A stretch of DNA of 63,240 nt, the filler included, from Diploschistes diacapsis (taxonomy: Eukaryota), in assembly GCA_023645945.1 (NCBI GenBank). It is 24 parts of 24 records of this genome, joined end to end, with 100 filler letters (N's around TTAATTAATTAA, not from the genome) between each part and the next. Parts side by side here need not be neighbours in the genome. Positions count along the whole stretch, not along the records: positions 1 to 18,646 come from JALAIB010000405.1; 23 more parts are not named here. One strand, written 5' to 3'. The notes beneath the pieces are model-generated. The model saw nothing but the letters and a program-made list of their open reading frames with translations. It made no database searches and was not told the DNA's origin. The translations under genes and the position numbers were made by a program. Position 1 is the first letter of the stretch; each line of letters opens with the position of its first letter. Below are positions 1-24,310 of the stretch, in pieces.

Positions 1-2
1 CC

Positions 3-305
3 ACGGGTTCCTCCCCCCTTTCCAAAAACCCCCTCCCGAAGCCAAAGCCGTCAAAACACCACCTGGCCCCACCCCAAGACCCCACCGCCAAGCCGCTGAC
101 CTCTTTCTTCGCGAAGCCACACCAGCGCGCCGCGGCGCTCGACCGGACGCGCCGGGCGGCCGGGCGCATGCGGCTGGCGTTCGGCGTGCCGCTGCCGGAC
201 GTGCCGGAGAGCGGGGAGGAGGTCGAGTTTCGGCTGCCCGCTGGGTTCATGTCGGAGAAGGGGATGAGGGCGGCGGCCAGGCGGTGCAGGAGGGAGAGGA
301 GGTAA
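3..305 (+). CDS. 3' end of a conserved fungal hypothetical protein (5'-truncated at window edge)
   Basis: Frame +3 is open to TAA at 303-305: ...RAAALDRTRRAAGRMRLAFGVPLPDVPESGEEVEFRLPAGFMSEKGMRAAARRCRRERR*. GC-rich third positions; the C-terminus resembles a Pezizomycotina hypothetical family recalled from memory. Not in the ORF track because there is no ATG. Confidence 0.5.
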   Translation, partial: TGSSPLSKNPLPKPKPSKHHLAPPQDPTAKPLTSFFAKPHQRAAALDRTRRAAGRMRLAFGVPLPDVPESGEEVEFRLPAGFMSEKGMRAAARRCRRERR

Positions 306-1998
306 AACGGCGAGGGGGACTGGGACTGGGACGGGGATTGGGACGGAGGTTCTCATGGCCCCTGTGCTTGTAACCGTCTTTTTGCCGCATCGAAAGCAGG
401 CAGGCGGGGATGGATAGATGGGATACATATCTTCTTCCCCAGACAGATCGTCGCGCGGTTATGGGGGGCGGTCATGGGGGATGCCTGGTTTTCTCTCGAA
501 CCCCGTTTGGGAGAGGCGGGGAGACCGGGGGAAGATGGGGGAGATGACGCGATGTTTACGGCGTACAATAAGTCCAGCCTCATCACATTACTTTTACCTC
601 CCGTTCAAATGGCATCGCTTCTACTTTTTCCACCTCGAACTTGCTCGTTGCTGCTGTGATGCATGCGCGGACACGGTGGAGAGCCGGCATTATAGGCACA
701 CGGCCCAGGGCGGAAGGGGGCTGCGCGTCTTGAGGGGGGTGGAGATGGGAAATGGAGATGGAGGTAAGGCGCCCACTTGATGTGCTGAGATTTGCGGGGT
801 GCTTTTGTTTTACCCGCTGGACGTTGGAGGGGGGGATTACTTGGTGCCCGCTTTGATACAGAAGGAAGGGAGGAAGGGGCGTTGTTTTGGCACCCGCATG
901 GTTGGTTGTATACAGGATCTCCTTTCGTTTGACGACCAAGAAACTCCGTCTTTAATTGTATCAGGAATCAGGACGGGGGGTGGGGGGTGGTCGTGCTCTT
1001 TTTTGTAGGTCCCTCCCTGCCCCATCCGTCACCCACTTTATGGCTTGATCAAGAGCTCGAAGATTGGTTCAGGCTAGTAACGAAATGGATCTTGGGATGG
1101 TCGGAGCTTTTCCTGGAAACCTTGTTATGATTTATGTTGTTGTAGTTATGTTGAAGTATCTGTCGAGTTTCTCGGAAGAGGTTTTTGGTATGTTGGTATT
1201 GGTATGTTTAATATTGTATTGTTAGTATTATCGCCGATGTCGTTTCTAGGGTGATTGATACATGCCGGTTTCATGTCCTCGGGGGGTATACTATTAGGCT
1301 GAAATGTTTTCGAGCAGGTGTGGTTGTGGGTGGGTTGAGTTATTGTGCTTGCTAGAGAAGTTGCAGTGTAGTTCCTTTACCAGATAAACGTCCAAGAACT
1401 CCGTGTCGAAGTCAGGACAAGGGAGTGGTCTAGTTTGTAAGCTCCAGCGCAGCCCCAATTATTAGCATAGCCATACGGCTTGCTTATGCGGTGGGGGCCA
1501 CAAAGGGTGGACCACTAACAGCTCGACAGGGCAGGAAGCTGTATATGCCCGGTATCTGCGACGTTATAGACTCGCATTGACGTTCGCATTGCAATCCACC
1601 GACGCCGTTCAAGTGCCGCACAGTTCATTCCTAAGGTCTTACTCTAGACTTCTCCCGGTCTAGCAATGCTTTTGATTCTCATCATGTTCGAGAGGTCCGC
1701 AACATTAGAAGCAACAGTGCTACAACTACAGTATCCTCGGCGCATGCACAGCATTCCTGCAGCGTGGTTCACGCCGAACCACCGTAGTAGATGGAGTACG
1801 TTCGACAAAGCTTAATCAAACACTCAGACAAGGTGCTCTCGCTGTTAGTCCAGTCTCTCGGTCTGCTAACCCCCCGCATGATCCCAGCGTGTTGTCTTGC
1901 TTGTTTTGTTCTCGTCTCTGCCTCCTGTGGTTGTTTCTTCAGCAAGATATGTCGATGTATCCTTTCCTCCTTCCTTTCTGTTCGTTTATAGCCTCAAT

Positions 1999-3322
1999 AT
2001 GCTGCTGAGAAGGGATGGACTTACGGAGACGCACGTTCTGGGCGTGCGAGATCTGGGAATTGAGGCTGCTTTTCTGGTCATAGCTACGCTTGCCCTCGGC
2101 CTGCGCTTGTGGGCGCGGCGAATCAGCCAACGCCAGCTACGTTTTAACGACCATACGATTCTCGTTGCCTGGGTAAGACTTCTCGGACAGGCTGTTCGCA
2201 GCGCAAGCAGTCGCGGCCAGCACTGAAGACCTATAGCCCACCACTCTAGGGTTGTTCATAACCACGATTATTTGTAAGTGCCCCTGGGGTAACTCCGCGC
2301 GGGTAAAATGCTGACATTAGAAAGCCGTTGTGGACGGAGACGCCGGTAGCAACACCAACGACGTGAGCCTAACGCCTTTTGTGCAGTCTGAGAAGGTATC
2401 CGGCTGTGGTCTTTCCTCTCTTTGTTGCACTGCTCTAAGACTAGCAGACTATTGTCGCCGGCGACTACCTATGGGCCGTCGCCATTACCTTGATCAAACT
2501 CTCCATCCTCCACCTTTACATCACCCTCTTCCCAGGTCACCTGCTCCACAGAGCCTGCTACGCCATGATGGGCGTCGTCGTATGCTTCGGCATCACAGCC
2601 ATCTTCCTCACCTCCTTCATATGCACCCCTATTGCAGCACAATGGGATCCCACGGTACCCAGAACGTGCGGCGGCGAACGCACAGCGCTTCTGGTCGAGA
2701 GCATCGTCAACGCGACAATCAACCTCGTCATCATCTGCATACCAATGCCCACCCTGTGGCGGCTCCAAGTAAGAGTGAACCACAAAATCCTGCTTACTAT
2801 CGTCTTTGGCGTCGGTAGCCTGTGAGTCTCTGCCCTCTGGCCTCTCCTCCGTTCGAGTTTTACTGTCTCCTCTCATCCCCCAGTAGTTGACACACCCCGG
2901 CTCACCCCCTTGTCAGTACCTGCGCCGTAACAATCCTCCGCTTCGTCCCCGTCGCTCAAGCCTCCGCCAACGTCACCACCGCTCTCGCCCGCATGGCCCT
3001 CTGGACCCACCTAGAAGCCATGCTGGGCATCATCTGCGCCTGCCTCCCCATCGTCCGGCCCCCGCTCAGTCGACTGTGCCGGCTCGCCACGGGCCGCCCT
3101 TACAAAACATCCCCTTCGGAGCCGACACCCATGTCTCCGAGCACCGGGCCCAGGGCAAGGTACGGGAGGAGTAAAAGCATGAGCGGAAGCGAGGAGAGGA
3201 GCATGATCGGCGGGACGCGAGGGGGTAAGGGGAGGGATCTGTATCCGCTGACGGAGATTGGGGTTGAAGAGGGGGGATGGGATGATGGGGCGGAGCGGGA
3301 GAGTGGGATGGAGGGACGGTAG
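1999..3322 (+). CDS. PTH11-like / fungal rhodopsin-domain integral membrane protein (no CFEM domain), multi-exon
   Basis: Exon translations LALGLRLWARR...NDHTILVAW; IKLSILHLYITLF...FICTPIAAQWD...IICIPMPTLWRLQV...LLTIVFGVG; WTHLEAMLGIICACLP are hallmark motifs of this 7-TM family. GT-AG introns (e.g. donor 2173, donor 2822). Confidence 0.88.
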
Positions 3323-5716
3323 AGCTTGCCAGCAGGCCGAAGAGTCGAACGGAAGAGGAGAGGACGAGGCAGGAAGAGGCGGTGGAGCTGCCGGCGGTTG
3401 TGCCGGTCGGCTGGCCGGGCACGCAGGGCATAACGGTGAGGACGGAGTTTATTGTCGAGAGGGAGCGGAAATAGCGTATATACATGCTGAAATTTTTTAC
3501 GTTTCGATGATTTTTCCAGGTCCGGCGCTGAGTTTGGTGGGACCTTCAACCCTTTTTTTTTTTGCACTATTCGGTGGAGTTCTGATCACATGGCGAGATT
3601 GCGGAACGTGACCGCGTCGTCGCGAAAGGCAATGCCTGCAACTGTTCGTCTTGGGTGCTGCCGAGGCACGCAGATTGGGCATCTACATGTCCTTGGTGCT
3701 TCCGACTGGAGGTATCCTTTAGGTCTCGTCAACCGGCTGTCTGGAACCTCAACCGGTCGAGGCCAACCCGTCCGTTGTCCGTCAAAGCAGTGGCTATCCT
3801 CATCCTCGCAAATGTCGAGCTCCGAGCTGTCGAGATGGATCACGCTAACCAGGTTCTGCGTTGACTTGCGGGCGAGCCCAACCAGAAGCCCGGACATCAT
3901 GAGTCTCTTCGACTCTCATATCCACGGTCTGGAACACAGCAACGTTCCCACCATGATACAGTCAAAGACGAGACTGAAATTGATACCCATCAGAAGCTAA
4001 CTGCCATCTCGAAAGGGTCTTTGTGCTACTCGTCTATCCTATCTGGGCGGCCACCTGGATAGAGATTCTTGAACGCTGAATCCATGAGACTGGGAGACTC
4101 CGGGAGGTCAGGCATGTCGTCGAAGTGAGATAACATGGGGGGCCATGGCTTACGGAGATATGTATCAAAAGAACCAAGGGGTAACAAGCTTCGATATGGA
4201 GACTATTGCATGAATCTTCTGAATCAAATTCGAAAAGGTTACTTCGTCTCTATCCCTTCTTATATCTTCAGCCGCAAATCTTCCTTTTACAACACGTTCC
4301 GAGCATGGACTCAACCATCCGAGAGATTTCCCGCGACGAGAACGCCCAGTCCGCCGAAAGCTTCAATCCCAAACTCCGCCAGTGCCTCCAACCGCACCAC
4401 CAACCTCAAAGACCCCGCACACATCCCACGCTCTCGGTGGATAGCCACAGGGTCCCCCCCGCCCCGACAGCGCCGCCCTTCACGGCCTTTCTTCCGCGAC
4501 AACAACCCCACGCCACCCCCTTCCTTGAAGACGACGATACCCGTACAACAACAAGCCGAGCCGAGTCGAGTCGAGTCAAGTCGGCCAAGACGTCCAGAAA
4601 AACAGGCATGCTCCACCCTCGTCCCCCAGTCCAGAAACACAGCACACACAGCGCCAATCAATGACCTCGTCACTACATGCTCCGCCAATCACCTCCCTCG
4701 CCCTTAATCCAGCACAACGACCGAGGAAGGCCCTCCACGGTGCACTCAAGCCTCTCCTCCCTTCCCAACCCAATCTCTCGTCTGCAGCGGGCGGGCGCGC
4801 ACTTCGCTCAGCCGAGGCTTTTCCAAGCAGCGACCAATGTAGGCCCGTCCGCAGGCTTGGTTCGTCAACGACTGGGGTGGGGGGGATGTACATGTATGAA
4901 GCAAAGGGAAGTACTGGGGTACCCATGACCCCCCCGGACTTGGTTGTTTGGAGGCCCGTCTTTCCCTGAAGTCAAGGTAGGGGGAGGGAGCCTGGTGAAC
5001 TTGGAGGTGGGGCTACTGAGTAATAATTGCACTTCTCGGCACCGCTATGGTTTGGCAAGAACTTCGAGGAGGTAAAACGCATAGGGCTTTGTCGTCTGTA
5101 TCGTGCATCGGAATGGAGCAGGTCGTTTCTTGGCGACTGGGGAGCATCGTGGACGTTTGACTTGAGCAGGAATAACGATCTCTTTTTTTTTTGGGCATTC
5201 TTGGAGGCGGGGGTGGGTTGAGCTACTTCGGTCCGTTTGATTTTTACCTCGAGTTGGGCGGATCGTTGCTGATAGATCAATTGAATCTCGGAGAAGGGGT
5301 TGGTTGGCGCGTTCTTTTACGGGTCGATGATATATAATGACATCCATTAAAAGCCTTCGTCCAATTTTTTATTGTATTGATACTGATTCCTAAGGCGAAG
5401 CGAAAGGACTATAACATATGTTTTTATTAATATTCGAGGCAGCATCCGCAACAGCATTTCCCGCGTCATATCTAACGCAACGTGTGAAGTGACATCTCGC
5501 GCAGTTGGGACAGCCTCGGAAAGCACATATCTCGAGTACCTGGAGCAGTATCTGGGAGCCAGAAATATCGTGTGAATTGATCAACATTTCTATTTTCCCA
5601 CCTCACGTGCCTGCAACTCCTCAGGCTTTACCGAATCCTTTGAGTTTGCTACCCGGGGCCCGGGTGCATCGTACTCAAATTACCATGCTTTTGTCTTCGA
5701 CAATTGCGTGTCACGC

Positions 5717-6720
5717 CTAGGCTACAAGAGTGAGGAGGATAGTGGCATATTTTTGATCCTCGCTTAGAATAGCTTCTGTTTCTAGCCTCTAAAAGCAGAG
5801 GGCACCTTACGTTGCACCGACGCACCACAAATCGGCTGTCTTGGGTTTGCCTAACACGGCGAGAACCGTCAAGAAGGTCATCAGGATGACCGTCAACCCG
5901 CTCCTCCGACCCATCGAGCAGCGAGACAGTATACATGGGCAGAAAGAGGAGGGCGACCCATGTAGAAATCAGAACAATGTGCGCGAGGCTGTTGATCAGA
6001 GTCTGGAGGAAGATGTGGACGTTCGGATCCCGGGTGATATTGCTCCGGAAGCTCTATGGTGCTCTGTGAGCAATTCCTCCTGCAGGGAAGGGACCTTTTT
6101 TTCTTTTTTTTTGAAGATGAGCTGTAAGTCATACCTTTCCGATGACGCTGAACATCCCAGATGATGGTATCTTCAATGGGTCTCTCCAGGTGTACTGGGA
6201 TGTTGTTGCTTCTTGTCGGTGCAATGACCATGAGCTCAGTCTGGTGCTGCAGATACTCTGTCTCGTTCCGGGCCAAGCAGGCTGAGTTGTCTATCAAGTT
6301 TTGGAGGTTGCTGATGTTCTGGAGACTGGCTTCGTCGCGTGCGAGAGCCTTGTTGGTCCTACTGATAAGATTATCTTCGAGATTGAATGGACTGGTCTTT
6401 TTTCGTTTAAAGCTAACGGTAGGACATGGAAAGCCGATTCTTAGATGCCACTTACCACATACCCCTTCAATGCAACGTCCAAGCTCGCAAGGATTCCTTT
6501 CCTAGCCGTGTTTGTGTCTCGCCTCCAGCTCCCTAGAAACAAAGGCTTCGGCTCATCCATATCCAGCCTCTCCAGTTCCTTCTCGAGTACTGCGACCCTG
6601 TCCGGCTTGTATAGCAGCATCCGTACCCTTACGGTAGTAAAGCGCAGAAACACTGGGAACGACGGGTGTGTGCTAAGAAGGGTCGCGAATCCGGGGTCAC
6701 TTTTCGTGAACAAATCAATG
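5717..6720 (-). pseudogene. DUF6594-like membrane protein pseudogene
   Basis: PGFATLLSTHPSFPVFLRFTTVRVRMLLYKPDRVAVLEKELERLDMDEPKPLFLGSWRRD...; NLQNLIDNSACLARNETEYL; RDPNVHIF...; terminal TM segments LTVILMTFLTVLAVLGKPKTADLWCVGAT/YATILLTLVA*. +1 frameshift near 5897; last intron acceptor reads AA instead of AG near 5751. Confidence 0.72.
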
Positions 6721-6859
6721 TTGGCTGATTCTAATGATCAAAGACTATCCGCCTTGTTTCTTCACTGTGTTTGGAGCAGAATTATCGGAAACCGAAGCTG
6801 CTGATAAACACCCAATACATCTAATCTGATGATTCGGTATCCCGAATATCCCGAAATCA

Positions 6860-7475
6860 TGGCTTTTATGAATATCACACTAGCTTCTCCAGTACCTACG
6901 AGTTTGAAACCAACGAATAAAGAGTCACGAGCGTATTCCATGTAAACGCTTCGTCTTTTCAAGCTACTTCCCACAGCTGCAGCATTATTGGTGCTCGGTA
7001 CCCTAATTCGAAAACCAAAATCAAATACTCGTATCGTCTGATCATTCTGATCATCAGGCTGCCTTGACTGCCTGAAGGGTGCAAGGCATACCAGTTGACG
7101 TGAGAGATGAGGGGTCGCGCTTTGCAAGCTTATCAAGCATTGGCTGCGTTCTTCTTGTCTTCTGGTCTGCCTTCAGATTTGCTTGCAGGGTTGTCGAATT
7201 ATCGTCAAGCAAGAAGCTGCTGCAAGTTACTCGATCGGGGCTTATGTTCTCTGGCCAATGGCCGGATCGCGAAGAATCAGCAATTGGGCCAAAGAATTGA
7301 GAATTCTCCGGACATGAGTACTCTGACAGATGGTGATCCGTATCGATTGATGCTTTGTGTTTGAGAAAGACGGCAAAAGAAATTTCGACCCGGCCATAAA
7401 GTTCTCCTGTCGCTTCCTGGTCATCGAGCGTTTTTAGGGCCCTACTTGATTTCAACAGTGTCGCAGTTTGCAAGC
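6860..7475 (-). pseudogene. Degraded coding remnant, possibly the N-terminal part of the DUF6594-like gene
   Basis: Two overlapping frameshifted ORFs (LDDQEATGELYGRVEISFAVF...; HLSRQLVCLAPF...IRVFDFGF) lie on the same strand directly upstream of the DUF6594-like region. No family recognised with certainty. Confidence 0.35.
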
Positions 7476-7599
7476 TACATGCTTTGTACCGAAGACGGAG
7501 ACCCAGTCAATGATGGCAAGAAGTCAATGAAGGCCGGCTGAGTGCAGCTTGATCGAATATATTTAGAAGCAGTGGCAGATAGTTTTCGATTGAAGCGCC

Positions 7600-9718
7600 T
7601 CAAATGAATAAAGCGGAGGGTTCTCCATCGACTTCGATACCGTGAGAAAGTCGTGCTAAGACCACTGTTTCGAAAGCACGAGCAAATTGCGACTGATAGA
7701 TATCGTCCCTGATGATTGCCAAGTCTCCGCTCAAACACGCTCTCATAGCTTTCTCGTATTCAAAGCCCATGCCCATGCTCAGGAGAATCTGAGATCTTTG
7801 AAGAAGATATCCTCCCAATGAAGGCGACTAAATCCTCGCGGCAGCTTCTCCCAGATTCCAATCTCGAGTAGAAGCATGCGAAAAGAGTACATGTCATGCT
7901 TATTTTCGTGTTTGCTTCTCGGTGCCTGGCTTTGTTGGTCGGCGTGCCTATAGATGTCGCGCATCTCGTGGTGAGGATCTGGTTTGCGGGAAGAGTATCC
8001 ATCCTCTTCTCGAGAATGACAAAAAAGGTAGGGCTTTGGGTAGTCTACTAGCTTTATGTCGAGATCCTTGTAAAGACGTGCGATTTTTGCAATGCCAGAC
8101 CAAGGTTTAATGCAAGTTCGAACCTTTGGCCAAGGGTTGGCAGATTTGGATCATTTTTCTTGTTGGCATGTCGTCCCCTGATCGTGTACAGGGAAACAAA
8201 GCTCTGCCGTGGTCAACTCTGGTATGTGGAATTTCCTGCGGAGACGGCTCTGAGCACATTTGCGAGAGAATCCATTATCCTTAATCAGTCTTTATTAAAT
8301 GATGGATCCTTCTGTTCGTATGTCGCATGTTTTATGAAGATTGATCTATGCCCCACGTCGTCTTTGGTGATGAGACTGCTGAGGCTGACAACTGTGCGGT
8401 CCACATCAAGAAATGTAGGCTAGATTAACTGCATTAATGCCTGAGGTCGAATCTCTAGAGCCTGACCAGGCCCTATGCCTGAGATGTCCGGGGCCTGGAG
8501 CGTCTCTCGAAGCGACTCTTCGCGATAAAGAGAGGGAAAGTATAGAACCAACCGTTCCACGGTGCGTTGCAGGCCGAAAATATTAAGCTGAATGCTTGCA
8601 GAAGTGTTTGAACCGAGCCCTTTCCTTGTGCACAGTAGCAGATGAGGCCGGCTCTGCTCTAAGAAGTGATACTGATGTAATCAGTGCGTTCTTCAGTCGT
8701 GTCATAAATGTAGCCCATGCCTTTCCTGAGCTCGCTGGGATAGGACGGTGAGATAGAGACTACAGAAAAGCCATGACCGAGTTGGCGAGAAACTTTGCAC
8801 GTTCTGTGATGTCAAGGATATCTATCCCAAGAACATCTCGTAGAGCTGATTTCCATAACCAATCAGTAACCTTTTTAAGCAAGTTCTCATCACGGGTATC
8901 TCGAACGATCATTCGAAGCGACATCGACGGTACACAGTTGCTGGTGACTCCAGTCTCAAGGATTCCTGGGCTATGTTCCAGGCCATCTCGACCGAGCGGT
9001 AAGTAGATTGGACTTTCGAGGAGATTAGATCTTGCGCTCTCCATGCGGTGGCCGCCTTCTTTTGCAATGACGGACTTTTTCTCGTCGAAAAGTTCTGTAA
9101 CCACTTTCTATCCAGGCAGTCGTAAAGGAACGAGGACCTGACCGCCGCGGTTGCCGGTTCATCGCGCAAGCTACCACGATCTCTATCTCTGAAGGACAAG
9201 GCAGCGTAACAACAGTCTAGAAGCAGGACTACATCACCTTGAGCAAGCCCTGGAGCTGGTTGTATGTTGGACCAAATGGGTGTTGGGCCGCCTTGATCCT
9301 TGGCCGCCCAAACTCCCTTCTTATAATCACTCGCGCCCTCCTCGTCGCCATGGCCACCATAATGAATAATGGATAGGGATAGGGATCGACTCAAGTTGGC
9401 TGCCCGGAGAGATCAGCGGTGCGTTTGAGCAGTTTAAGCTCAGGGTTCTCGCTGATAGTGCAGAACATTGTATCCGGATCTCTTGCGGCAAAATTCTCCA
9501 AACTTGTCGGCTACATCTACGAAATCTGGATCGCTCATCTCCCGGTAAAGAAGCAGCACGACTACGAAGTCGTAACCTCGTCTTCTGTCTTTGCCGAAGT
9601 GGGCTTGAAGCTCCTGATTCAGGAGATCCTTACCACTACATGTGTTCAGTGCTGTCAGAGCTTAGTCAAAGACGTGGAGTGAAAGACTCGGACTGTTATC
9701 TCTCGCGGTTTCAAGCAT
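7600..9718 (-). pseudogene. Caspase-like (clan CD) peptidase fused to a C-terminal protein-kinase-like domain; frameshifted pseudogene
   Basis: N-terminus RGYDFVVVLLLY...SLSIIHYGGHG...VWAA...WSNIQP...DVVLLLDCCYAA gives a His-Gly/Asp-Cys dyad (about 9205-9365). Helical middle region NIFGLQRTVERLVLYFPSLYREESL. Kinase-like C-terminus PTLGQRFELALNLG...VDYPKPYL...DIYRHADQQ...HDMYSFRMLLLEIGIW...MGFEYEKAMRACLSGD...AFETVVLARL. Several frameshifts, stops and deletions. Confidence 0.75.
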
Positions 9719-10335
9719 CAGAACTGAAAAAGGATCAACGTATATTGCGCTCGGCTTGTTTGCTAATGTGCTTTGCAGGGTTCGGCCACGCTTGAAGATT
9801 ATCCCAAAGCGCACGAATGACTTCACGAATGCATATGCAATAAGAGGATATCCTTCAACCAATGCTCTGCAAGTATGATCTTGTGTAAATTAAAGCTGTG
9901 CTGTTGAAACTCTAGCAAAGCTATATCATTCTAGTCCTGTTCGATGTGGCTGCTGTGTGTCAATGGTGATCTTAAGCCGAAATTGGGTTGATGCCATTCT
10001 TGAGTGCATTCGCGCGCGCCTAGGCGTTGAACAAGGTGATTTCGGGCTGAAGACGAAGGCTGTAACCATTGACGTGAGCTTTACGTCCGATTTGTACGGT
10101 GCTGGATTCTCGGACGTTTTTTCGAAGGGCTTGAGGTTACTAGTAGGTATCAGTTCCCTTGCTAGTCATATCATGGCTATATAGATTGACGTACAGCTTG
10201 AACATACTTCGTTCTCTAATTCTTGCATAGTCTAGGCCAGAACGGTCAGTCAAGCCATCCATTCCACCTTCCTCCGTATCTCTTGGACGTCTCATCTCTC
10301 AAATCATAGGGCTGGACTCGAATTATTCTGGAGAA

Positions 10336-13300
10336 ATGACGGAGCTTCAAGTGGTCAGAGACAAACTTATACGCAAAGCTCCTCGTTTCCTTCCTGGAGA
10401 TTGCTGGAGAGGTGCATTGGGATACAGAAACTCAAGAAACGGTCCAGAGAGGCCAGCCCGACAATGAACATCTGATCTTGTTTGGCTCCGCTTCATCAAG
10501 TGAAGAAATGTTATTATATTTTCATTTGACCCTGGCTCAAGCTGGAGTCAACGTCAGAACCTTGGCCAAGACAGCGTGTACTTCGTTAGGAAGCATTCAT
10601 CCCTCAGTGGCGCGAACTTTACGCACCATATCATGTTCCGGACTTGCTCGACCAGCGCAAGCGATCCTATTTTGTCGAACATAGAGGTCTCAAATTGACG
10701 CACGATACTCCGGTAGCTTATAAGCTGCCGTACTCTCATTCACCTCAAGTCGAGATTGGTCGCCAAATCATTCAAGGGCTTGCTGCAGAGATGAGGATTC
10801 TTTGTCATCCGTCCATTAAGAACCACACGAACATTGCACGTCTATTGGGCGTTGCATGGGGTGCACAGAGAAGATATGGGTCTGTATGTCGACGGTGGGT
10901 GGGGGATTGGGGGTTGAACCGTCTGTCTGGCCAATTGTGGTCATTGAGAAAGCGACGCACGGCTCTCTGGAGGATCTGCTGAGAACCCATCATTCGAGAA
11001 ACGAATCTATTCCGCTCCTGACGAAATTCAAAAATATGCATTGCAAGCTTTACAGGTAAGGGGCCGGTTCCATCATACTTTAAACCGAAAGCTGAAACCC
11101 ATGAGACCGCCCATACTAACTAGATCTTCCACGCGGACATCAAAACCGAAAATGTTTTAATATTTACCTCTCACAAGGCACGAGTAAGAATTGGACAGCA
11201 AAGGCCTGTGATTTCAGCCATTCAAAGATGAATATTCATAGCAGCACAAAGTCTTTCCGAAAAATAGACATAATCAGAACAGAGCACTAACGTCTACTAG
11301 AGCTAGTTCCCCCTGACATTGTGATTCCTGCTTCCAGTCTCAGGTCAATTGCTGTATGGTGCTGGGGAATGCTTCTCTGGTATATGCTGTTGGGCGGCAA
11401 CCCGTACGATACGACATCCGGTGTAAGCATCCCGAAAGAGTTGATGCAAGAATACAGAGTTTCTGGAGTTCTGCATAACACTGCTCTTGAGACTTATCAG
11501 TAGATGCTCTATGGAGAACAGCATGATCACAAGCTCATAGTAGTCATCCTTGATTGTCTGTCAGGTACACTTCAGCAAGATCATCCTGGCGGTCTAGCTC
11601 AGAGGCTTTGCTACGTGACATCGCAAATGAGCTCAATTTGTACCACTCGCGCCAGAACAGTCCTTAGCTTCATTTGACGTAAAGTATTCTTGTGCATTCT
11701 GTTCACAACACTAACTCTTCACAGCTTACAAAGATGTATTGCGAATTTTGCCCTCCCCTCGTGCAGCAGCCCAAGTCACAAAGGTACTACGAGAATCTGC
11801 GAATGAACAAGTTCATGGTGAAAGTGTGAATCAGCTGGACTCAGCTGTCCAGCTGGTGCTGTGTTACATAGCTGGTTTTGGCATTGAGAGATCACAGACG
11901 AAAGCTATTGGGCTACTCTCGGAGGCTGCCCGGAGAGAAAGCTGGAAGTCGCGAGCCATTCTGCCATCGCTTTTCAAAATCACTTGATGTTGACGTTGAT
12001 GGATCGCTTCAGACCGAGCTCATAAGCTGGCAGAAACAAGCTTGTACGATGGGCTCAAGGATTACTTCACGATACCTCAGCGCTTTGAATGTTGACGGAA
12101 CGTCTCAATGCATTCCAATGCCAGAATCATGTCAAGCTGTTGAATGCGGCGACATTGAAAGTGTCGCTTTACTGCTCCGACGCGGAATTGCGCCTATGGT
12201 CCAGGGGTCAGAGCAGGATACGTCGCTCCACCGTGCTGTTCATTTACCGGCACACTTGGGCATCCAGATTACAACGACGCTTCTCGACCATGGAGTGGAT
12301 CCCTTTGATCTCCGAAGAAAACCGTCGAGTCTGGTAGCACTATCGAAATACGACTTCCTATTTAACGAAACGCCCAAAGTAGAGTCAGCACTACACTAGT
12401 CTATTATAGAGGACAATCTTCGAAAATTGATGTTCAACGCCCAAGGAATGTGATTTTTACGAATGACCACGTACTTACAGCTTGCCAGTATCTCAATCTC
12501 GAGTGCCTGAAGTACCTCCTGGGAGCAGTGGACTTTTCATAACCAAGCCCATATTGCAGCCAGAAACTTCAAGTCAGGCCATAATCCGCTCTATTACATC
12601 CTTTGGCCTAGCTTTTTTGAGCGACTGTCCAGACAGCTAATGTGAATCGACTAGATGGCTCTTCACTTTTTTCTCTTGCTCAGCAATGTCAAATGCAAAC
12701 GATAGAAACATTGCAGCAAAGCGTGTGGAGGATTGATACTGCACCCGAAAGGTCTTTTACCGCTATCCACCTGCTGGCTGCTTACGGGGAGCCGGAGCTG
12801 CTTGACATTTTTTCTGCAAGTGCCGGCTTTCTTTAGACTGATTGACGAGCCAAACAGTGAAGTTTATGGCAGGTGAGGCCGCTTCGAGGAGCAATCATCC
12901 GGGCCGAGCTGACATTTGCCGCGTTCTACTTAACTACGGAGCTGGCTACAGGCGTGTCTGTAACGGAATTCATGCCATATACGTATGCGCTCACGTCTGA
13001 GAAGCAGCATCGTACGGCATTGCAGAGTCAAACTTTGTTGCTAGGGACTCTTCCTGTTATCTTACTGAAGAGTCGGGGATTACGCTTGGAGAAGAAACAG
13101 AGGAATGGAGGGTTTGAGCTAGTAGAAGCTCAGCGCGAGAAGTCTAACAAAGCACTGCTGACCGACGCCACGCCTCTCCACTGGGGGATGCCGTAGCTTC
13201 ACAATCCATTCAGACTATTAGATTACTGCGCCGCGAGCATGCTGCGAGGGGACTGTTACTCCAAGCACTCAAGCTGGGTTATGAGCTCTGGAAGTCTCCA

Positions 13301-14263
13301 TCTGCAGTCAACTTCGTTATAAGGTCGGCGAGGTTTGGGGGGATTCCGAGTCTCAAGATCAAACTTTTCATTCACCTTCCTCCGGCTCAGAGCTTATTCT
13401 AGTCAACATTCTTATGCGAGACTGCAAACCCACCGTACTTCCCAGCTTCAATGCTCTCCACAGAATCTTCGTCGATCCCTGCTATGAGACGAGCATATAT
13501 AGTGCCGTCTACAACGGAGACTTTGAAATGACGAGAAGATTCGGGATTCCAGCAACGTCCAAGTATCTAGAGACATACTAAGGAGCCTCGTCAAGATAGC
13601 TTGGACCGCCTAAGAATAAATTGCTTTCCGGGGAAGAAAGGTTTCAGGCCGCTTGGAATACACCAAACGGGTTCTGGAATACTTGGTGCAGAAATATGAG
13701 CAGGAGTTTAATCGAGTCAAAACGCAGGTAACTTTGACGAAGATCAATACAGACAAGCAAGAGTTGGCAAATGGAGAGTGATGTCGAACGGGAGCTGGTC
13801 TGGATGGAAGTTTCATTCACTCCGGCAATTTACCTTGTTCCGGCCTTGTTGTTTTCCTGGTGCTTTTCTTATACCGCTGTTTTACTACTCTAGCGTAATA
13901 CCGTTTCCGACTTCTTGGTTGGGCCTGTCCGTTGTTCTGATCTGTCTTACCATGTCCTATCTTACTACGCTTTTGACTAGCGTATCGTCCTCTGTTTAGC
14001 TTCACCTTCCAGAACTCTGGTCTCTTGCTTTCCCGGTTACTGTCAATATTTTGATGCGCTGCTCATTGTTCCGCAAAATGGCAGCCATTCAATTGGGCTT
14101 CGCGCTCTTCATACCGCAATCAGGGATGCTGGAATACAGCTCTTGGAATCTGAGCATCCGCCTTATGGTTTGGGTGTGTATTCTGACATCGTACGTCTCT
14201 TTCAGCCGTTACAGGGCAAGGATAATTATAAGCATTATGGTCATTGTAACACTCCAAAAGTAA
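10336..14263 (+). pseudogene. Protein kinase + Sel1-like + ankyrin repeat protein with hydrophobic multi-pass C-terminus; pseudogene
   Basis: Kinase subdomains in order: LGQDSVYFV, VAYKLP, EMRILCHPSIKNHTNIARLLGVAW, IVVIEKATHGSL, HADIKTENVLI (11130), ACDFSHS, VWCWGMLLW. Sel1-like AVQLVLCYIAGFGIERS. Ankyrin-like AVECGDIESVALLLRRG, DTSLHRAV, FTAIHLLAAYG, ATPLHW. Hydrophobic in-frame stretch 13778-14263 with one stop. Many frameshifts and stops. Confidence 0.75.
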
Positions 14264-16536
14264 AAGCAGATACAGTTTCCAGTGGCGATGACCTGAGGCT
14301 GCATACTGAGGCAGTAATGTTAATTCTATAAATGCGTGAGGTGGGCCCAATTCATTTATCATAAACATTTAGATATATGATGTCTACTTCAGGAGCACCC
14401 TGGCTGCATACTGTTGCAAGCAGACTTGAAGCAGTTATTCAACTAACACCATCAAAAGCGCGATGATTGTGAAGTTTGACTTTGGCTCAAGCCCGGATTT
14501 TCTTTCCAAAAGAATTTCTTCTGCCTGTCTTCAAGGAAACAGATAGATCAATTTCGGCGGAAATTCTATAAACCAACGAATGCATTAGAGATTAGAATAA
14601 TCACAACGCGGATAAGAATAATAGCCAGAACTGCAAAGAAATATTGATATGGAAGTCCCGCCGACAACAGCTAGGAACGGCGGACTGCAACCATCTTATA
14701 CGTGATCAGGATGGCCTGGACAGAGTGCAGTCAAACGAGCACGAAATGTAGGGACCTCGTTGTTGACTATGGTCGAAACATAAACCCATTCCTATGTGAT
14801 GGCGAGCAGGCTGGACAGAGAGGAATCTGGTGCCGCCAGAACTTTGCAGGAGTGCGCACCATAAAAAGCAGGCGCCTTTGCACCAAAAAATTTCTGTGAG
14901 AGGACATGCTGAGCCAGCCTTTGTTCTGGGTGTAACTTTGTAGCTGGTGTCAACATGCTAGTGCTGACGGTCGCCATCTGGTACTGGCACATGAAGTTAC
15001 CTACCGTTCGACTTCTCGACCATCTTCTATCGACCATCGGCCTGAGAACGGAATCTTTTCCCGTGACTTATCTTATGCAGAGTGTCAAATACCGACTCGA
15101 AGCGGGATTGGTTGTGTTGGTCGATCTCTCCAATCCAAGTGTCCCTAGCTATTGAGAATAGAGGCTTTTGGGCTGACCACGCTAAAAGCCCAGCCGTGGA
15201 GATGTTGTGGTTCATTGAAGAAAGCGCTTGTATACAGTTATCCATAAGATCAAGATCCCATTGAGTCCTATCCGAATCATGAAAACCGGGCGTTGTTACT
15301 TCTTAAGAGCGTTTGGTTAGTTTGGATATTTCGCATTTCTGAATTCTTGATGTTTCTGGGTATGGTACCTAAAATCATGTTATTAGATGAAAAATTTTGC
15401 TAGTAGGTAACGTAGCCTGAGCTACCATGACTAAATGATTTCTTGATGTTCTCTCTCCTTCCGACGTAAGATGGATCATCTTAACGGAGATGCGTTCTGC
15501 ACGATCCTGCGAGTGGGGTATAGTCGCCGAGAGTGCCTCCTCTGCCGGGTAAGATATTGGCCAGTCTGAATGGAATACTGAAGAAACATTTCAATTCGAC
15601 TGTGATTTATCCTAGCCGGGTGCACAGCCCTCATGATGTTGTTGAAATGTTAGCTCGCCTCACTTCCTTTTCTGGGGATGCAGCAAAGAGTATAAATGGA
15701 GCTAACAAGTCGAACATGCCACCGATAGAAGGCTTGTAGTTAGTTAGTTAGTTAGTCAGCTGTCATCGACCTCAACGCCCAAACGCCTCGCCAAGTCTCT
15801 CTCCCTCAATTGGCCATGTTTCTCCACCATCCACCTTCTTTTCAGCTCTACATGTCTAGCTTGAAAAGCAAGTCGCCCAATCCAGCTAAACTCGAACCCA
15901 ACCTTGAAGCTGGTACCATCCCATTCCCCCCCTCTCTTTCCCACTTCAAGACCGAGTCCGAGTCCAAGTCCAAGTTCAGCTTGTTCGCTCCTCGATTCTG
16001 CACCTTTTGACGGCCCCTTCCCCCTCTGGAGCTCGGATCCCGCGCCATTCATGGCCTGTAGGGTCGGAATCGTTTCCGGTGGCCTGCACAACCTGCTTGA
16101 GATATATCGCTTGGCCTGCAGGCTGGGGCATCTAGGCAGACACGGGTTGACCGATGGGAGGATGGGATGGGGATGCTTTCGGCTTTATGCCGTGGCTTTT
16201 TGCCCCCTTCCTGCGAGATTGACAGGTCTCGAGAGGGTGGGCCCATCTACGTGATGTGATATAAACTAGTTAGGAGGAGCTTTCGTGGAGGAGCCCATGC
16301 GCTACTGGGACTAGGTGGTTCTTTTTTCTTCTTTCGTGTGCTGTTGCCCGCCGCGGTCGCGTGCTGATTGTTTCTTCTTCTACCTTTTTCCTCTTCTGCA
16401 GAAAGCACTTGTTCTTGAGCATACCAGGTTTTTTTCTTTCTTTTTTCTTTTTCGAACCGATACAACGCGCCACCATCATCGTGAATTGTTCAAAGTACCC
16501 TACGGCCAAGCATCGACAGCCACCCCTTCCGCAAAA

Positions 16537-18646
16537 ATGGAAGAGCCCCTCAACCCGCCACCCACCGGCCCAAACTCTCCTTCGCAACCCGCCGCTCCCC
16601 CTGCCGCCGCCGCACGCAGAGGCATCATCTCGCCCATCCGCTTCCAATCCTTCCGCTCGTCCTCCTTCCCCTTCGCCTCCCCCGTCGAAGCCTACACCCG
16701 CCACCAGCGCGAGGCCCACAACTCGCTCCGCCCGCCCCTTCTGCGCCCCGACTCCGTCATCCCCAAGAAGGCGCACAACGCAAACTACACCTCGGCCCAC
16801 GCCATTTCCGCGGCGGACAAGCTCGGCAACTTCCGCCGCCTGGTGGGCATCGACAGCGCGGAGGCCCACACGGTCTGGGGCAAGTACAACCGGCCGGCCG
16901 AGGTACGTCTGTTGCAACGAGTTGGGAGAGCGGTTACTTGCTTGTGTAGTTGGTTGGGATGTTGTGCTAACGGGATGATACGCTTTGCGCTAGAATGTGG
17001 GCATCTACATGCATACCGTGCGCGAGGAGGTGCACGCCAGAGCGCAGTACAAGCGGTTTTCCATCCTGATCAACTGCTCGCTGGGCTTCCAGATCATCAT
17101 CGCTGCCGCTCTGACGGCGCTGGGAGCGGGGGGCGGGCCGAGGGAGGCTGTTACGACTTTCGGAGCCATTAACACGGTACGTCCTTGAAACCCGATTCCC
17201 GAAGAGCAGAATAAGGAAGCATGCTGAAGCGAGCCCGCAGATCATGGCCGCCATCCTCACATTCCTCAAAGGTTCCGGCCTGCCGAACCGGGAGAAATAC
17301 TATTCGAACGAATGGGCAAAGCTGCGCGAGTACATCGAGCAGCGGGAACGCGACTTCGAACGCGAGGGCTGCCTGCTGGACGTGGACGAAGAAGTGCGGA
17401 AGATAGAGGCCATGTACAACGAGGTCAAGCAGGACGTCGAGGCCAACACGCCGGACGCCTACACGAGCGTTACGCAGGCGAAGAAGCTTGCGGCCGCCGC
17501 TGCTAGCCAGGCTCAGGGGCATGAAGGGGTGACGGAGAAGGGCAACATGAGCAGCAGCAGTACCAGAAATTCTGGTATGAACGGCAATAGTGGCGGCGTC
17601 GAAGGGGGCGTGCACCCCACGGCACTAGCCTCAGCCATAGGCCCGAACCTTGAAGCCGGTACCTACCCTCCTTTCACAGGCCTCGGCGCGGGTCCAGCCA
17701 GCGGTATTGGCCTCGGGTCCGGCCCCGCAGGCGGAACCACTATCCCTCCTCCTACCGCCCCCTCGACTTTGCGCCCTCAAGCTGCTTCCTACTCCAACCC
17801 CTATCCCCAGCCCCAGCAACCGCACCACGAAGGCTCCTCCCTCGGCAAATCGGCCGACGGAGCGAACGGCGGCAACACCAACACCACCGTCGGCCTCGCA
17901 GGCCTAGCAAGGAACCTAGGCAGCGACCGAGCAAGCCACGTCCTGGACTCAGTGAACCGGCTGAGCCACAAGCTGGGCGCTGACGGGCTGGTCGATTGGC
18001 TGCGGCATCTGGAGCACTCGCACCCGCACTCGCGCGACCGCGACGGTGGCGATGGGAATCTACCGAATCCAGCGCGTGCTTACGTTGCTGAAGGGGCGGC
18101 AGGTGCTGAGGTGGAAAGAGCGAGGAGTATGGGGAGGGAAGTCGGGTTTGCAGGCGAGCGCATGGTTCGCGAAACGGCTGGGTACGTGGGTGCGGAGGTT
18201 AGCAGGGAAGGAGAGAGGCTGGTGGAAGCGGAGGTTAGCAGGGAAGGGGAGAGGCTGGTGGAAGCGGGGAGGGAGGCGGAGACGAGGGCGGATCGGCTGG
18301 TGAGGGAGGCGGAAGGGCAGGCGAGATATCGGGCGAGCCAGGTACGCCAGCGAGTGGATGGTGCGCGAGGCGAGGCGAGCCAGCAAGTGGGCAGAGCGAG
18401 GGATGAAGCCTATCAGCAAGCGGATAGGATGAGAACAGAGGCGGAAAGAGTGAGGGACGAAGCGAGCCACCAAGCAGATAGGATGAGAGCGGAGGCAGAT
18501 AGGGTAAGGAGCGAAGCGGAGAGGACGCGGCACGGAGTTTCGGCCGCGCTGGGAAGAGTCAGGAGTCAGGGCGAGGGGTACTTTTCGCACGTGTCGGCCG
18601 GGTTGGAGGGCCAGGCGAGGCGATTGCGGGAGGCGGGGGCTAGGGC
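16537..18646 (+). CDS. SLATT (SMODS- and SLOG-associating 2TM effector, fungal type) domain protein with long repetitive C-terminus; 3'-truncated at gap
   Basis: Exons 16537-16902, 16994-17176 and 17241-gap, with GT-AG introns. Spliced NVGIY...YKRFSILINCSLGFQIIIAAALTALGA...VTTFGAINTIMAAILTFLKGSGLPNREKYYSNEWAKLREYIEQRERDF is the typical fungal SLATT signature. Confidence 0.88.
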
Positions 18647-18746: not shown

Positions 18747-19374
18747 AATTATAACTTATTAATCTTATAACCGTGTTTAATAAACTTTATTCGACTTATC
18801 GGACATTTTTACTTACATTTTATAACCCTTTTTTAACCTCGAATCAATTCGATTTGGATTTATTTTTATTATATAATTCTTTACCAAATACGACCGAACT
18901 GCGAAAGGCCAATAAAGAGTTTAATCAGGCGTTACGAGCCGTTCTAAAACTGGTTAACCCGATTCGACGTTATTCGAATTAAATAATCCGTATATTTAAA
19001 CCGACGTATATTAAGCTTATAACGTTTCGTAAAGAAAACCGAAAGCAAAAAACGCTTCTTAATAATCGTAAAAAACGTAAATTAGACAAACGAATCGAAT
19101 TAAAAGATCGTTTTATATTTAGCACAAACGAAATTCTTAAAATAGCAGTTCGGGCTGAATCGAATCGAATAGTTTCGAAACGACCTACAACGCGTAAAAA
19201 ACATCGTCGCGTTTCTAAAATCGAGAAGAATAAAGAAGAAGAAGATAGATTCGATTTAGATCGATTAGATTCTAATTGCGACGAACAGGTTGTATCTAAA
19301 AACCGTAGAATATTAGCAGTAGTGATTTGAGGTAGCCGGAATCTGGGGGTGGCCGAAATCCGCGTGAAACACGT
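18747..19374 (+). mobile_element. pogo/Fot1-type (Tc1/mariner) DNA transposon family F: RIP-mutated transposase C-terminus and right TIR
   Basis: Translation ...TELRKANKEFNQALR...RKENRKQKTLLNNRKKRKLDKRIELKDRFIFSTNEIL. Ends in GGTAGCCGGAATCTGGGGGTGGCCGAAATCCGCGTGAAACACGT followed by TA. Confidence 0.8.
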
Positions 19375-19520
19375 TATTATTAATAAATATTAAATAATTA
19401 TTATTGTATAATTAAACGGAAGATATAATTATAAGGTCGACTCGTTTTAAAAAACTTATTAAAAGAATTCGAGAAATTTAGTTAAACAAAGTTATCGAAG
19501 TTCAATTAATTTAATTTAAT

Positions 19521-19704
19521 TGTTGAGCAGGCAGGCAGAATGCATGGCTGGGAGGTTCAGCTGAACCCACTTGGGTTCCTGCTAATCCGGATTGGGAGTA
19601 GCGCAAGCCTGTAGGGCTTAACGGATCTCATAGGTATAAAAACTTGCATATAAGTTATTCCTTTTAAATAAATCTTTAGACTTCAATATATTCGTTATAT
19701 TAGA
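19521..19704 (+). repeat. Copia-family LTR (family A)
   Basis: Starts TGTTGAGCAGGCAGGCAGAATGCATGGCTGGGAG; homologous to LTRs at 29971, 54368-54583, 55747, 60409-60627 and 61487. Confidence 0.75.
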
Positions 19705-19924
19705 AAAAAAAAAGATATTAAGATTTAATTTAATACTAAACCTATACTTTTGAAATTACGGAAATATTTCGATATAAATTATAAAAAAACAAGTTAGATC
19801 GAAAGTTTACGTATAAATATATATNNNNNNNNNNNNNNNNNNNNNNNNNNNNNNNNNNNNNNNNNNNNTTAATTAATTAANNNNNNNNNNNNNNNNNNNN
19901 NNNNNNNNNNNNNNNNNNNNNNNN

Positions 19925-20455
19925 ATATTTATTAACGGGTAAAAGTCTTCCGGTATAAGCCGTATAAGACGTTATATTTTTTTCGGCTACCGTCCGTATT
20001 TTAAAAAGAAATCATATTAGATTTTATTATAGAATTACCTTTTAGCAAGAACGTAACAGAGGTTGTCGACGCGATCCTAATTATAATAGATGGATATACC
20101 AAAATAATAAAATATATCGTTATAATTAAATCGCTGACGTCCGACGGGTTAACGACGATTGTCTTACGAGATGTTATTTTGAAATATAGCGCCTTCGATG
20201 GCATTATATTCGATTAAAGATCGATATTAACGAGCTAATATTGATTTTAATTTTACCGTGTTATATAGACGAGATAGCGTTTAAGTACCGCTTTTTATCC
20301 GTAATTTAACGGGTAGATAGAGCGTTAAAATTAAACGTTAGAATATTATTTCCGTATATTTTGTTGCGAGGGCTAAGATGATTAATTAGAATTATTATTA
20401 TTAATAAAATTTTCGTATAATGTTACGTATAATTCGACGATTAAAATAATCTTAT
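19925..20455 (+). mobile_element. Ty3/Gypsy integrase core, RIP-degraded
   Basis: LDFIIELP...DAILIIIDGYTK...DGIIFD*RSILTS...RLSTAFYP*FNG*IER*N*TLEYY: the DDE region with stops produced by C>T/G>A changes. Confidence 0.85.
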
Positions 20456-21001
20456 TGTAAGGCCAAGCAAGGAGCATGCCAATAGTCGGACAAGCGGCAC
20501 TCAGGGTCTTGGCTTGCGGGTACTTGAAAGGGGATTTTGCCCTTCTTATTCTTTCCTTTTCTTTAGTAATAAGTCTTAGCATGAATATGCTCTGCGTATA
20601 ATCATCTTATTATATTATCGTATTTCATCCTTTATAGTTCTAATTATTCTATCTTTTTTAAGAACGACGATCTAACAAGATAACACGTTCTTCGCAACGT
20701 ACACGCAGGGCAAATTCACGCAATTAAATTAAAATAAAAGAAAGTGAAGGAAAAGAAAGAAGTGAACGATCTAAAATTATTTCATTTGATGAAAAAAATT
20801 CAGATCATATCGAGTAATAAGAACGAGACTCGTAGTCTAAAGGCAAAGTATTAGCAGGCGAGTCGTTAGAATAAAAAGATAATTTCGAATCTATATTAAG
20901 AAATATATCAGAAAGAGTGAAAAACATACTATTAAAAATGAGATAAGATATGAAATTTAAAGAAAGCTAGGTAGGAACGGCGAGAAAAGATGCTTTTGTC
21001 G
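20456..21001 (+). mobile_element. LTR family B 5' LTR (20456-20636, 181 bp) plus internal leader, inserted into a Gypsy integrase
   Basis: TGTAAGG...CTTTA(C/T)A termini. The same LTR and the same downstream sequence occur at 58981-59718. Confidence 0.82.
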
Positions 21002-21101
21002 NNNNNNNNNNNNNNNNNNNNNNNNNNNNNNNNNNNNNNNNNNNNTTAATTAATTAANNNNNNNNNNNNNNNNNNNNNNNNNNNNNNNNNNNNNNNNNNN
21101 N

Positions 21102-22178
21102 CCTCTCACCTCCCATCTTTACTAACGCCATCTTCATCTTCATTCATTACCTCCTACAATAGTAATACATTACTATTGTACTCAGCATTATTTCCCTAGT
21201 CATTACTTGCCTATTTAGTCACCACACTTCCACTTTCAACAAGTCGGAATATATTTATCTTTATAAATATCTTTAACGATTGCTCGAGATCAATCTATAT
21301 TCGTTTACTTTATCATCAGATAGCAGTCTTTTTAGAGATCAGTACAGACCTATAACCGATCTATTTCTTCTCTTTCCATACTCCTCTTCTACCAGAGACC
21401 AAACCCACCTTAATCAATACCTCGTGTCTACGTTGTAGAGATAGAGATTATAACACTAAATCCTAAATCTTTTTCTATATTTTCTTCCGAGGCTTCACTA
21501 TTTTCTTCCAACTTCGGTCCAGGTTCCGACTACAAAATATCTTTATAGGATCGCTAACAAAAGCTTTCAATCTTCTTTCAGCAAAAATTCCATTAAGGAC
21601 CGTACCATTCAGTTCGATAAACTTGTATATTAACTTTTATGATTTACGTAGGTCATCCGGTAAAAACCGAGCTATTAAAAATTCAGTAACTTTTTAAAAT
21701 AAAACGAGATAATAAAATAAAACAAAAATCTAAAACAAAATAAAGGTTTTTATTAAAAAAAAACTTATTTTTATTGCTATATAGAATAGAATGGATTTTA
21801 TTAATCGAGATGGAAGTTATTACGTAAACGATATTATTATAAAATGATATTTATAACCGGGCCGATCTTTTGGCGGCAAGAATAAGATAACTAGAAAACC
21901 GTAATGAAAATATAAAGGAAATTTTTATTAAAATAGTACGACGGAAGGGTTAAATGATCGATTTACGTTATAAAGGTATTTATACGAAGGTCTATTTCTT
22001 TTATATTAGAAATCTTGTATTATTTTATAATAATAGATATTAGAAGGATTATTCCGTATCGAGAAAGTTGAATTTTTAATAGCTCGGTTTTTACCGGATG
22101 ACCTACGTAAATCATAAAAGTTAATATACAAGTTTATCGAACTGAATGGTACGGTCCTTAATGGAATTTTTGCTGAAA
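21102..22178. mobile_element. Gypsy integrase C-terminal (GPY/F-type) remnant arranged as a fold-back
   Basis: Plus strand ...RNLVLFYNNRY*KDYSVSRKLNF**LGFYRMTY.../YKFIELNGTVLNGIFAE. Bases 22069-22178 are the exact reverse complement of 21576-21685. Confidence 0.6.
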
Positions 22179-22972: not shown

Positions 22973-23355
22973 TGTTACGATCCAAGTACCAGACTTGGCA
23001 CGTCCCAGCTTTGTATATAGGTTAGTCACGGGACCAGGGGTCACGTGATGCGTTCACTGCTCGCGCTTATTCTTGTGAGCGGCGAGCGGGTTTTCGCCAT
23101 CGCTCGATAGTCGCGCTCATTCTTGTAAGCGGCGAGTTTCGAAAGCACCGCTCGTTGAATTTATAGTAAACGGCGAGCGAATTAATTATATATAAACACG
23201 ATTCTATTTTCGTGAAAAAAAACGTGTTTATTTTTATAAATATTTTTAATTATTGTTCGGGATTAATTTATATTCGTTATTTTTATTATTAAAGAGTCTT
23301 TTTTTTAAAGATAGTTTAAGATTTATAATTGTTTTACTTTTTTTTTTTATTATAT
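22973..23355 (+). repeat. LTR family C (partial; ~455 bp when complete)
   Basis: Starts TGTTACGATCCAAGTACCAGACTTGGCACGTCCCAGC; reverse copies at 56296-56750 and 62481-62936. Confidence 0.82.
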
Positions 23356-23989: not shown

Positions 23990-23990
23990 A

Positions 23991-24154: not shown

Positions 24155-24156
24155 TA

Positions 24157-24308: not shown

Positions 24309-24310
24309 TA

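Follow-up and report, generated by a model that had tools for sequence, protein, structure and literature searches.

Do the broken genes that lie side by side in one fungal contig mark the loss of a shared pathway, or did unrelated genes merely meet there while decaying? The question is raised by positions 5717 to 14263 of a 63,240-nucleotide stretch of Diploschistes diacapsis DNA (assembly GCA_023645945.1; below, the window), in which positions 1-18646 are contig C3391 (JALAIB010000405.1) of a genome of 29 Mb in 4361 contigs, and the remainder is other contigs joined by Ns. By gene content and by homologues the source is a filamentous ascomycete; the sequencing run that matches best bears the label lichen metagenome, and no RNA run was listed among the matches, which says nothing about expression. 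The original prediction described three adjacent disrupted genes here and read them as parts of an immunity or cell-death module. Our analysis adds a fourth, small gene. Across related loci the four genes are linked, co-diverge and are under purifying selection, and it is almost certain that they form a functional unit. A role of this unit in defence or cell death is probable, and we lean, by a little less, toward the fuller reading, in which the window holds the dead version of a four-gene cassette conserved in filamentous ascomycetes and the death mechanism proposed below applies. The features are as follows.

about 5717..6731, minus strand: DUF6594 membrane-protein gene of at least four exons, a pseudogene (Pfam PF20237 and L042 exons; last exon by eye)
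7365-7538, plus strand: last exon of a small SH3-like gene, C-terminus truncated, upstream exons unrecognisable (L042 match and profile)
7600..9649, minus strand: fusion of a caspase-like (C14) protease, a helical domain and a pseudokinase, a pseudogene (alignment to P0001)
10336..11503, plus strand: protein kinase part of the kinase gene, a pseudogene with HADIKTEN and DFS readable, start tentative (alignment to the L042 kinase)
11715..14263, plus strand: downstream part of the kinase gene, with a Sel1-like section, ankyrin repeats and a hydrophobic C-terminus, a pseudogene (alignment to L042:15363-17792(-))

Frameshift-aware alignment to intact relatives, namely the 755-residue protein P0001 and the locus L042, places the three larger genes at the positions and on the strands that had been claimed for them. 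The fusion aligns over 9649-7615(-) with P0001 (400/678 identities, 15 frameshifts, 1 stop); its HYGGHG and LLDCC motifs remain readable, and the catalytic-loop segment of its kinase-like domain is lost. Introns are ruled out as the cause of these breaks, as P0001 and L042:9953-12295 are each one open frame. The kinase gene aligns over 10477-13945(+) with intact L042 open reading frames (ORFs). Its kinase part has 114/333 identical residues and is interrupted by 4 frameshifts and 3 stops, though an intron probably accounts for one of each; its repeat part has 220/685 (score 355 versus 40 for the reversed protein), with 12 frameshifts and 7 stops, some of them uncertain at such identity. It stands head-to-head with the fusion at a distance of 0.69 kb, close to the 0.6 kb predicted, taken between the ATG at 10336 and the first caspase codon in the alignment, with start codons tentative. 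The DUF6594 gene, which does lie on the same strand as the fusion, is recognised by Pfam PF20237 at 6441-6737 (E 2.6e-13) and matches three L042 exons (45/87, 31/79 and 30/79 identities); there is one frameshift, near 5894, in the three aligned exons, the GYP motif is gone, and a start codon was looked for in the window and not found. Judged by breaks per aligned codons (1/245 versus 16/678 in the fusion), this gene looks less decayed. Among 26 window ORFs scanned with Pfam, DUF6594 gave the sole strong match, and Peptidase_C14, kinase, Sel1 and ankyrin gave weak ones at the places claimed.

The breaks are in the DNA, because a Logan contig of depth 83, which possibly derives from the source sample and serves as a check on the assembly only, is identical to the window over 5000-15000 (0 other letters, 0 gaps); assembly error is thereby ruled out. 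Repeat-induced point mutation (RIP) is also ruled out as their cause: TpA/ApT is 0.65-0.73 and (CpA+TpG)/(ApC+GpT) 1.29-1.32 in the three genes, versus 1.10 and 0.65 in an AT-rich comparison stretch at 19001-29000. On other contigs of the window, 19001-30000 and 49001-63240 are AT-rich (GC 0.25-0.36), and the part measured has dinucleotide ratios like those left by RIP. In two other sequencing runs, contigs mostly 90-99% alike cover the region, with indels of their own and further deletions; a 193-base skip across the start of the protease gene is common to contigs of both runs among the matches listed, and the decay thus seems older than their split.

With every gene of the group broken, and relatives carrying further deletions, the group could in principle be a chance assemblage of unrelated pseudogenes in DNA undergoing decay. 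We consider this scarcely credible, and the linkage counts and co-divergence across other loci refute it. Metagenome contigs were scanned with a 48-sequence alignment; the best 80 of 262 loci were retained and represent 50 distinct ones, of which 18, flanked by 5 kb or more both upstream and downstream, were counted and 32 left out. Those left out for short flank include L053 (complete), L109 and L050 (both partial) and L116, a caspase-pseudokinase gene for which a search of 10 kb upstream and 0.9 kb downstream yielded nothing. Ten of the counted loci encode a caspase-pseudokinase fusion; the SH3-like gene is present at 10/10 of these, DUF6594 at 9/10, the kinase at 9/10, ankyrins at 8/10 and all of them at 7/10. 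At the eight caspase-like loci that lack the pseudokinase, our controls, a kinase or ankyrin gene is found at 0/8 and DUF6594 with the SH3-like gene at 1/8. The supposition that kinase-ankyrin and DUF6594 genes recur beside the fusion is thus borne out.

The seven complete loci have seven gene orders, and the window has an eighth that it shares with L053; mean identity between loci is 29-36%. Because these loci probably descend from one cluster, what linkage argues for is that the genes stayed together while the loci diverged deeply and were rearranged again and again, not that they came together independently. The identity matrices of caspase, pseudokinase, DUF6594 and SH3-like protein correlate with one another (rho 0.39-0.60, permutation p 0.0005, n = 14-17), and that of the kinase correlates with the other members weakly or not at all (rho -0.03 to 0.22). 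Protease, SH3-like protein and DUF6594 are the stable core of the cluster, and the kinase-ankyrin gene is exchangeable. The ratio of non-synonymous to synonymous differences (pN/pS), from nine pairs of close loci, is 0.14-0.42 in all parts, with the repeats at 0.42. A caspase-domain tree has weak deep support and was kept out of the ordering of events. For 4/4 window genes the closest relative lies at a single locus, L042, which also argues against a chance meeting.

How might such a unit work? We infer that the ankyrin kinase is a sensor, the fusion a transducer and the membrane protein an executor, with a link to immunity or cell death. First, the ankyrin repeats of the kinase would sense a foreign or damage signal. 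Second, the active kinase would phosphorylate or bind the pseudokinase of the fusion, as RIPK3 does with MLKL. Third, the resulting change in the pseudokinase would free the metacaspase-fold protease. Fourth, the freed protease would cut one of two targets: DUF6594, or the small SH3-like protein, which has an acidic tail at its N-terminus and probably serves as an inhibitor or adaptor. Finally, DUF6594 would form or open a membrane ring, killing or arresting the cell compartment. In a second version of the system, a CHAT protease would replace the kinase and activate a protease that lacks the pseudokinase. The exact order of these steps may well be different, and we rate it as somewhat short of an even chance. 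More weakly, a cell-death outcome appears to be favoured by the precedent of fungal gasdermin clusters (PMC8851545, main text), together with the repeat-domain sensors, the multiple paralogues, the decay and the HET-domain genes that flank L049 and L061/L065 (2/16 scanned locus groups).

The domains on which this mechanism depends were confirmed on intact homologues by Pfam and by structure models, a test set beforehand. In P0001, Pfam assigns Peptidase_C14 (above cut-off) and DUF7580, and the AlphaFold model (mean predicted local distance difference test score, pLDDT, 83.5) has a metacaspase fold at 27-242, a helical middle and a kinase fold at 429-748. The first of these matches Arabidopsis metacaspase 4 (Z 20.2, root-mean-square deviation 3.1, 207 aligned residues) and the last IRAK1 (Z 20.2, root-mean-square deviation 3.3, 258 aligned). 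His101 and Asp146 are invariant among 48 aligned sequences and Cys147/148 is conserved in at least 90%; counted by locus, the His motif is kept in 25/26 and DxC in 26/26. The protease half is, by its model, a clan CD caspase-like fold with an intact His-Cys dyad and a predicted protease, and Asp146, by analogy to metacaspases, presumably indicates cutting after Arg or Lys. Both folds of the predicted caspase/kinase-like fusion therefore stand, with one correction: the catalytic-loop Asp is present in 0/13 covered loci (Glu replaces it in 3) and DFG is replaced by xGF, and the kinase-like half is, as judged from these residues, a pseudokinase. Its best sequence match in the PDB is MLKL (E 8.3e-9), with IRAK4 near (1.6e-7), and in a structural search many tyrosine-kinase-like folds tie. 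It is homologous to the pseudokinase of a HeLo-DUF7580 protein that the same genome encodes (profile probability 99.8), the match being confined to the pseudokinase. Pfam gave no HeLo match on P0001-P0011, the N-terminal domain being the protease; the middle helical domain is seen within the full-length model only.

Several other genes of these families were seen in passing. L123 (own contig C3668, 778-4557) encodes a 1260-residue HeLo-DUF7580 pseudokinase protein whose long C-terminal region resembles, by eye, a serine-protease domain. At L122 (own contig C3759, 3165-7657), a pseudokinase of the same family, whose N-terminal domain has no Pfam match, stands head-to-head with a kinase-WD40 gene; the two form a second kinase/pseudokinase pair, in which the repeats are of another type. 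A further head-to-head pseudokinase and kinase occupy L119 (18659-21854), about 5 kb from a complete cluster, and L004 (own contig C205, 190-2358) is a stand-alone caspase-like protein with TPR repeats at its C-terminus.

The predicted kinase-Sel1-ankyrin-transmembrane gene was right as to the kinase, the ankyrins and the hydrophobic tail (best 19-residue mean 2.03 in the window), and the Sel1 assignment is weak (Pfam E 0.061). In the intact L042 ORFs, Pfam finds Pkinase (E 8.7e-15) and Ank_2 (E 4.7e-36). The hydrophobic tail is found neither in the paralogue L005 nor in P0159, in which kinase and ankyrins lie within one gene model; an NCBI gene model of Gyalolechia that joins kinase, ankyrins and the start of DUF6594 is probably a merger of neighbouring genes. 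Both catalytic Asp residues are kept in 12/12 covered partner kinases. In the Diploschistes genome, contig C1824 carries an apparently intact paralogous set in a different order, with Pfam matches to kinase, ankyrin, DUF6594 and DUF7580 and an SH3-like ORF (introns judged by eye). Two loci have CHAT in the place of the kinase, and a caspase gene without pseudokinase. At one of them, L031/L032 (own contig C4066, 420-12513), a TPR-CHAT gene, a 743-residue C14 protease, the small gene, DUF6594 (a match with many stops) and a second TPR-CHAT gene lie together; at the other, L112/L113, CHAT, a caspase-like gene, DUF6594 and the small gene do so. The caspase-like gene at L112 8798-10282 is extended at its N-terminus by a long segment that has no Pfam match.

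These variants bear on the direction of signalling. In a reversed flow, DUF6594 and the small protein would be a membrane sensor or bait, and the protease would free the kinase from its ankyrins, the kinase itself being the toxic part, as has been conjectured for PCk of the bacterial SAVED-CHAT/PCaspase operon. The kinase is catalytically complete by sequence, and in the Haliangium type III-B operon SAVED-CHAT/PCaspase/PCi/PCk, CHAT and a caspase are described together with a small inhibitor and a kinase that is probably toxic (bioRxiv 2023.06.23.546230). The likeness extends to CHAT upstream of a C14 protease with a kinase in the cluster, and to PCi, which can be compared with the small SH3-like protein by description only; the operon, as far as described there, is unlike our cluster in being bacterial and nucleotide-triggered, without a membrane effector or a pseudokinase. 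Moreover, it is the kinase that is exchanged or missing while DUF6594 remains, and the pseudokinase accompanies the kinase but is lacking beside CHAT, a pattern that points to an input. We thus regard reversed flow as distinctly unlikely, and prefer a kinase that acts upstream of the protease.

The small gene had been missed in the original prediction, whose three genes do recur together as a module of four. The window ORF at 7368-7523(+) matches L042:12636-12884(-) in position and orientation (42% identity, E 7.8e-12), and its exon matches the family profile at E 1e-14. That profile finds 37/21,700 ORFs at E <=2e-9, nearly all adjoining a caspase-like or DUF6594 gene. Pfam matches within the family are weak (Integrase_p58_C in 5/21 members and SH3_Tf2-1 in 2/21, best E 0.00019), and Atlas matches at 0.89 are a lead only. 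The usual layout, by eye, is three short exons that encode an acidic tail, an RPxV..Y-like strand and a barrel; pooled pN/pS is 0.26, from few changes (6 synonymous, 5 non-synonymous). We regard this gene as the fourth member of the cluster, with a putative beta-barrel fold.

Its constancy (10/10 loci) would also suit an allorecognition locus or a toxin-antidote system, in which the small protein is the antidote, and presence or absence among strains, or a mismatch of alleles, leads to death. DUF3435 genes head large mobile elements, and one such gene, at L052 14652-15350, adjoins a complete cluster; an element of this type is a possible route of cluster spread. The Podospora het-v locus, as given in the part of its description consulted (PMC9262711), likewise pairs a modifying enzyme, the methyltransferase HET-Va, with the HeLo-Tudor protein HET-Vb, and so clusters an enzyme, a small beta-barrel domain and a membrane-targeting part; unlike our cluster, it is there without a protease or kinase and has another effector domain. 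Against this idea, seven close JAABU loci are nearly identical (one pair measured), and no highly divergent alleles were seen. We consider it very unlikely, and return to the small protein as a likely inhibitor or adaptor.

The proposed executor is a different kind of protein from the known one. The gasdermin effector is a beta-rich pore domain; DUF6594 is not a gasdermin, as its model is nearly all helix and Pfam assigns DUF6594. In the model of the homologue P0161 (pLDDT 86.7), a long helical hairpin is followed by three hydrophobic C-terminal helices. A fold search gave a best Z of 9.2, for the helical hairpin only, Foldseek gave nothing at E 0.001, a PDB sequence search had a best E of 0.28 and Atlas gave no specific match; this speaks neither for novelty nor for absence. 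In structure prediction with three copies, P0161 reached a self-association score of 0.47 versus 0.00 for the best control (contact agreement at least 85%, pLDDT at least 62). In calibration, the mark was reached by 21/30 solved pairs and 0/23 single chains from microbes, by 17/29 and 0/30 from eukaryotes, and by 1/7 eukaryotic pairs without an older solved relative. The predicted interface comprises conserved residues (GYPRL, RRF, R39/Q45), and one copy's face packs against the other face of the next in a ring-like manner, with the last transmembrane helices converging. The modelling supports self-association of the DUF6594 homologue; a pore is a further inference. A retropepsin-type motif was sought near 14 fetched own-genome DUF6594 stretches, and there was none but one unrelated match. 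Two further DUF6594 remnants were seen: at L038/L039 (own contig C1, 41288-43725), DUF6594 lies with a small SH3-like ORF and a short remnant that resembles the pseudokinase, probably another eroded cluster copy, and at L040 (own contig C3013, 3395-9809) a DUF6594 fragment lies about 2.4 kb from a NACHT-WD40 gene of the NOD-like receptor (NLR) type.

It is less clear that the unit must kill. The protease could instead regulate DUF6594 as a channel or membrane scaffold in stress or development, in a non-lethal signalling unit outside defence, and several points weigh in that direction or otherwise against a death cassette. First, DUF6594 is found on 12 contigs of the genome and has a caspase-like neighbour on four (the window, C1824, C4066 and C1112), the other 8/12 having no intact one in the fetched stretches; most of the remaining contigs present housekeeping gene surroundings, and DUF6594 may thus have an ordinary role. 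Second, a doubtful small ORF (SH3-like match probability 30) lies between the protease gene and DUF6594 on C1112, and no sensor was found nearby; L046 is without DUF6594 and L056 without the kinase, and at L106 the kinase is without ankyrins and may be unrelated. Third, pN/pS below 0.5 throughout, including the repeats, gives no sign of positive selection. Fourth, no inhibitory domain that could be cut away is obvious in cluster-type DUF6594, and the oligomer was modelled on a homologue in three copies, which is beyond the calibration. Finally, the locus counts are not independent events, since the loci probably share one origin, and the ORF set searched with the neighbour profiles was also the one used to build them, with Pfam confirmation for L005 and L042 only. 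On the other side, genomes hold several paralogous versions, the loci are repeatedly rearranged and decay, the TPR/CHAT and ankyrin sensors are exchangeable, and HET genes lie nearby, features that fit defence loci better. A non-lethal unit is therefore, in our judgement, unlikely, and we continue with the cell-death cassette.

Among known systems, the nearest may be the fungal gasdermin/HET-Q2-like clusters (Clave et al. 2022, PMC8851545). There, according to the main text, a protease adjoins the effector, as our protease adjoins a putative membrane effector; TPR-CHAT partners and several clusters per genome are further likenesses. Here, in contrast, the effector is a predicted all-helical DUF6594 protein with three transmembrane segments, the protease is a C14 metacaspase-fold/pseudokinase fusion, and the cluster has two genes more; that main text uses the word "kinase" 0 times. 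With RIPK3-MLKL and the fungal HeLo/HELL-pseudokinase proteins, as treated in the part of PMC12881547 consulted, the cluster has in common an active kinase paired with a pseudokinase, one homologous to that of the HeLo-DUF7580 protein and with MLKL as its best PDB match. It differs in that a protease and a helical domain, not a HeLo or four-helix bundle, precede the pseudokinase, and in that a separate gene encodes the membrane protein. The same part mentions gasdermin proteases fused to "predicted kinase-like domains" and does not mention the four-gene set. Unlike NLR/amyloid pairs of the NWD2-HET-S type, the cluster has no NACHT or NB-ARC domain by Pfam in the 26 window ORFs, the L005 and L042 ORFs, or P0159. 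If our reading holds, it would resemble a gasdermin-protease cluster fronted by a RIPK3/MLKL-type switch, being a member of neither, nor an NLR pair. No description of DUF6594, DUF7580 or the four-gene combination was found in the literature searched, mostly without subscription papers and with the PMC8851545 supplements on protease architectures outside the search, in keeping with the original statement that the combination was not known; the cassette is apparently undescribed.

The window copy is itself dead, and its worth is as a pointer to intact sets. If the reading is true, DUF6594 and DUF7580, both large orphan families of fungi, would gain a function, and gasdermins and HeLo proteins would be joined by a third executor class; a protease gated by its own pseudokinase domain, of which we found no description, would be a further novelty. 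More tentatively, and with less confidence than the order of steps, the parts may belong to a widespread fungal pathway that joins the logic of necroptosis and pyroptosis: a repeat-kinase, a pseudokinase switch, a caspase-fold protease, DUF6594 pores and a tiny inhibitor, with CHAT as an alternative. On the same contig as the cluster and about 2 kb from it, window 16315-18646 holds a gene with the two-transmembrane effector domain SLATT_fungal (E 8.8e-14).

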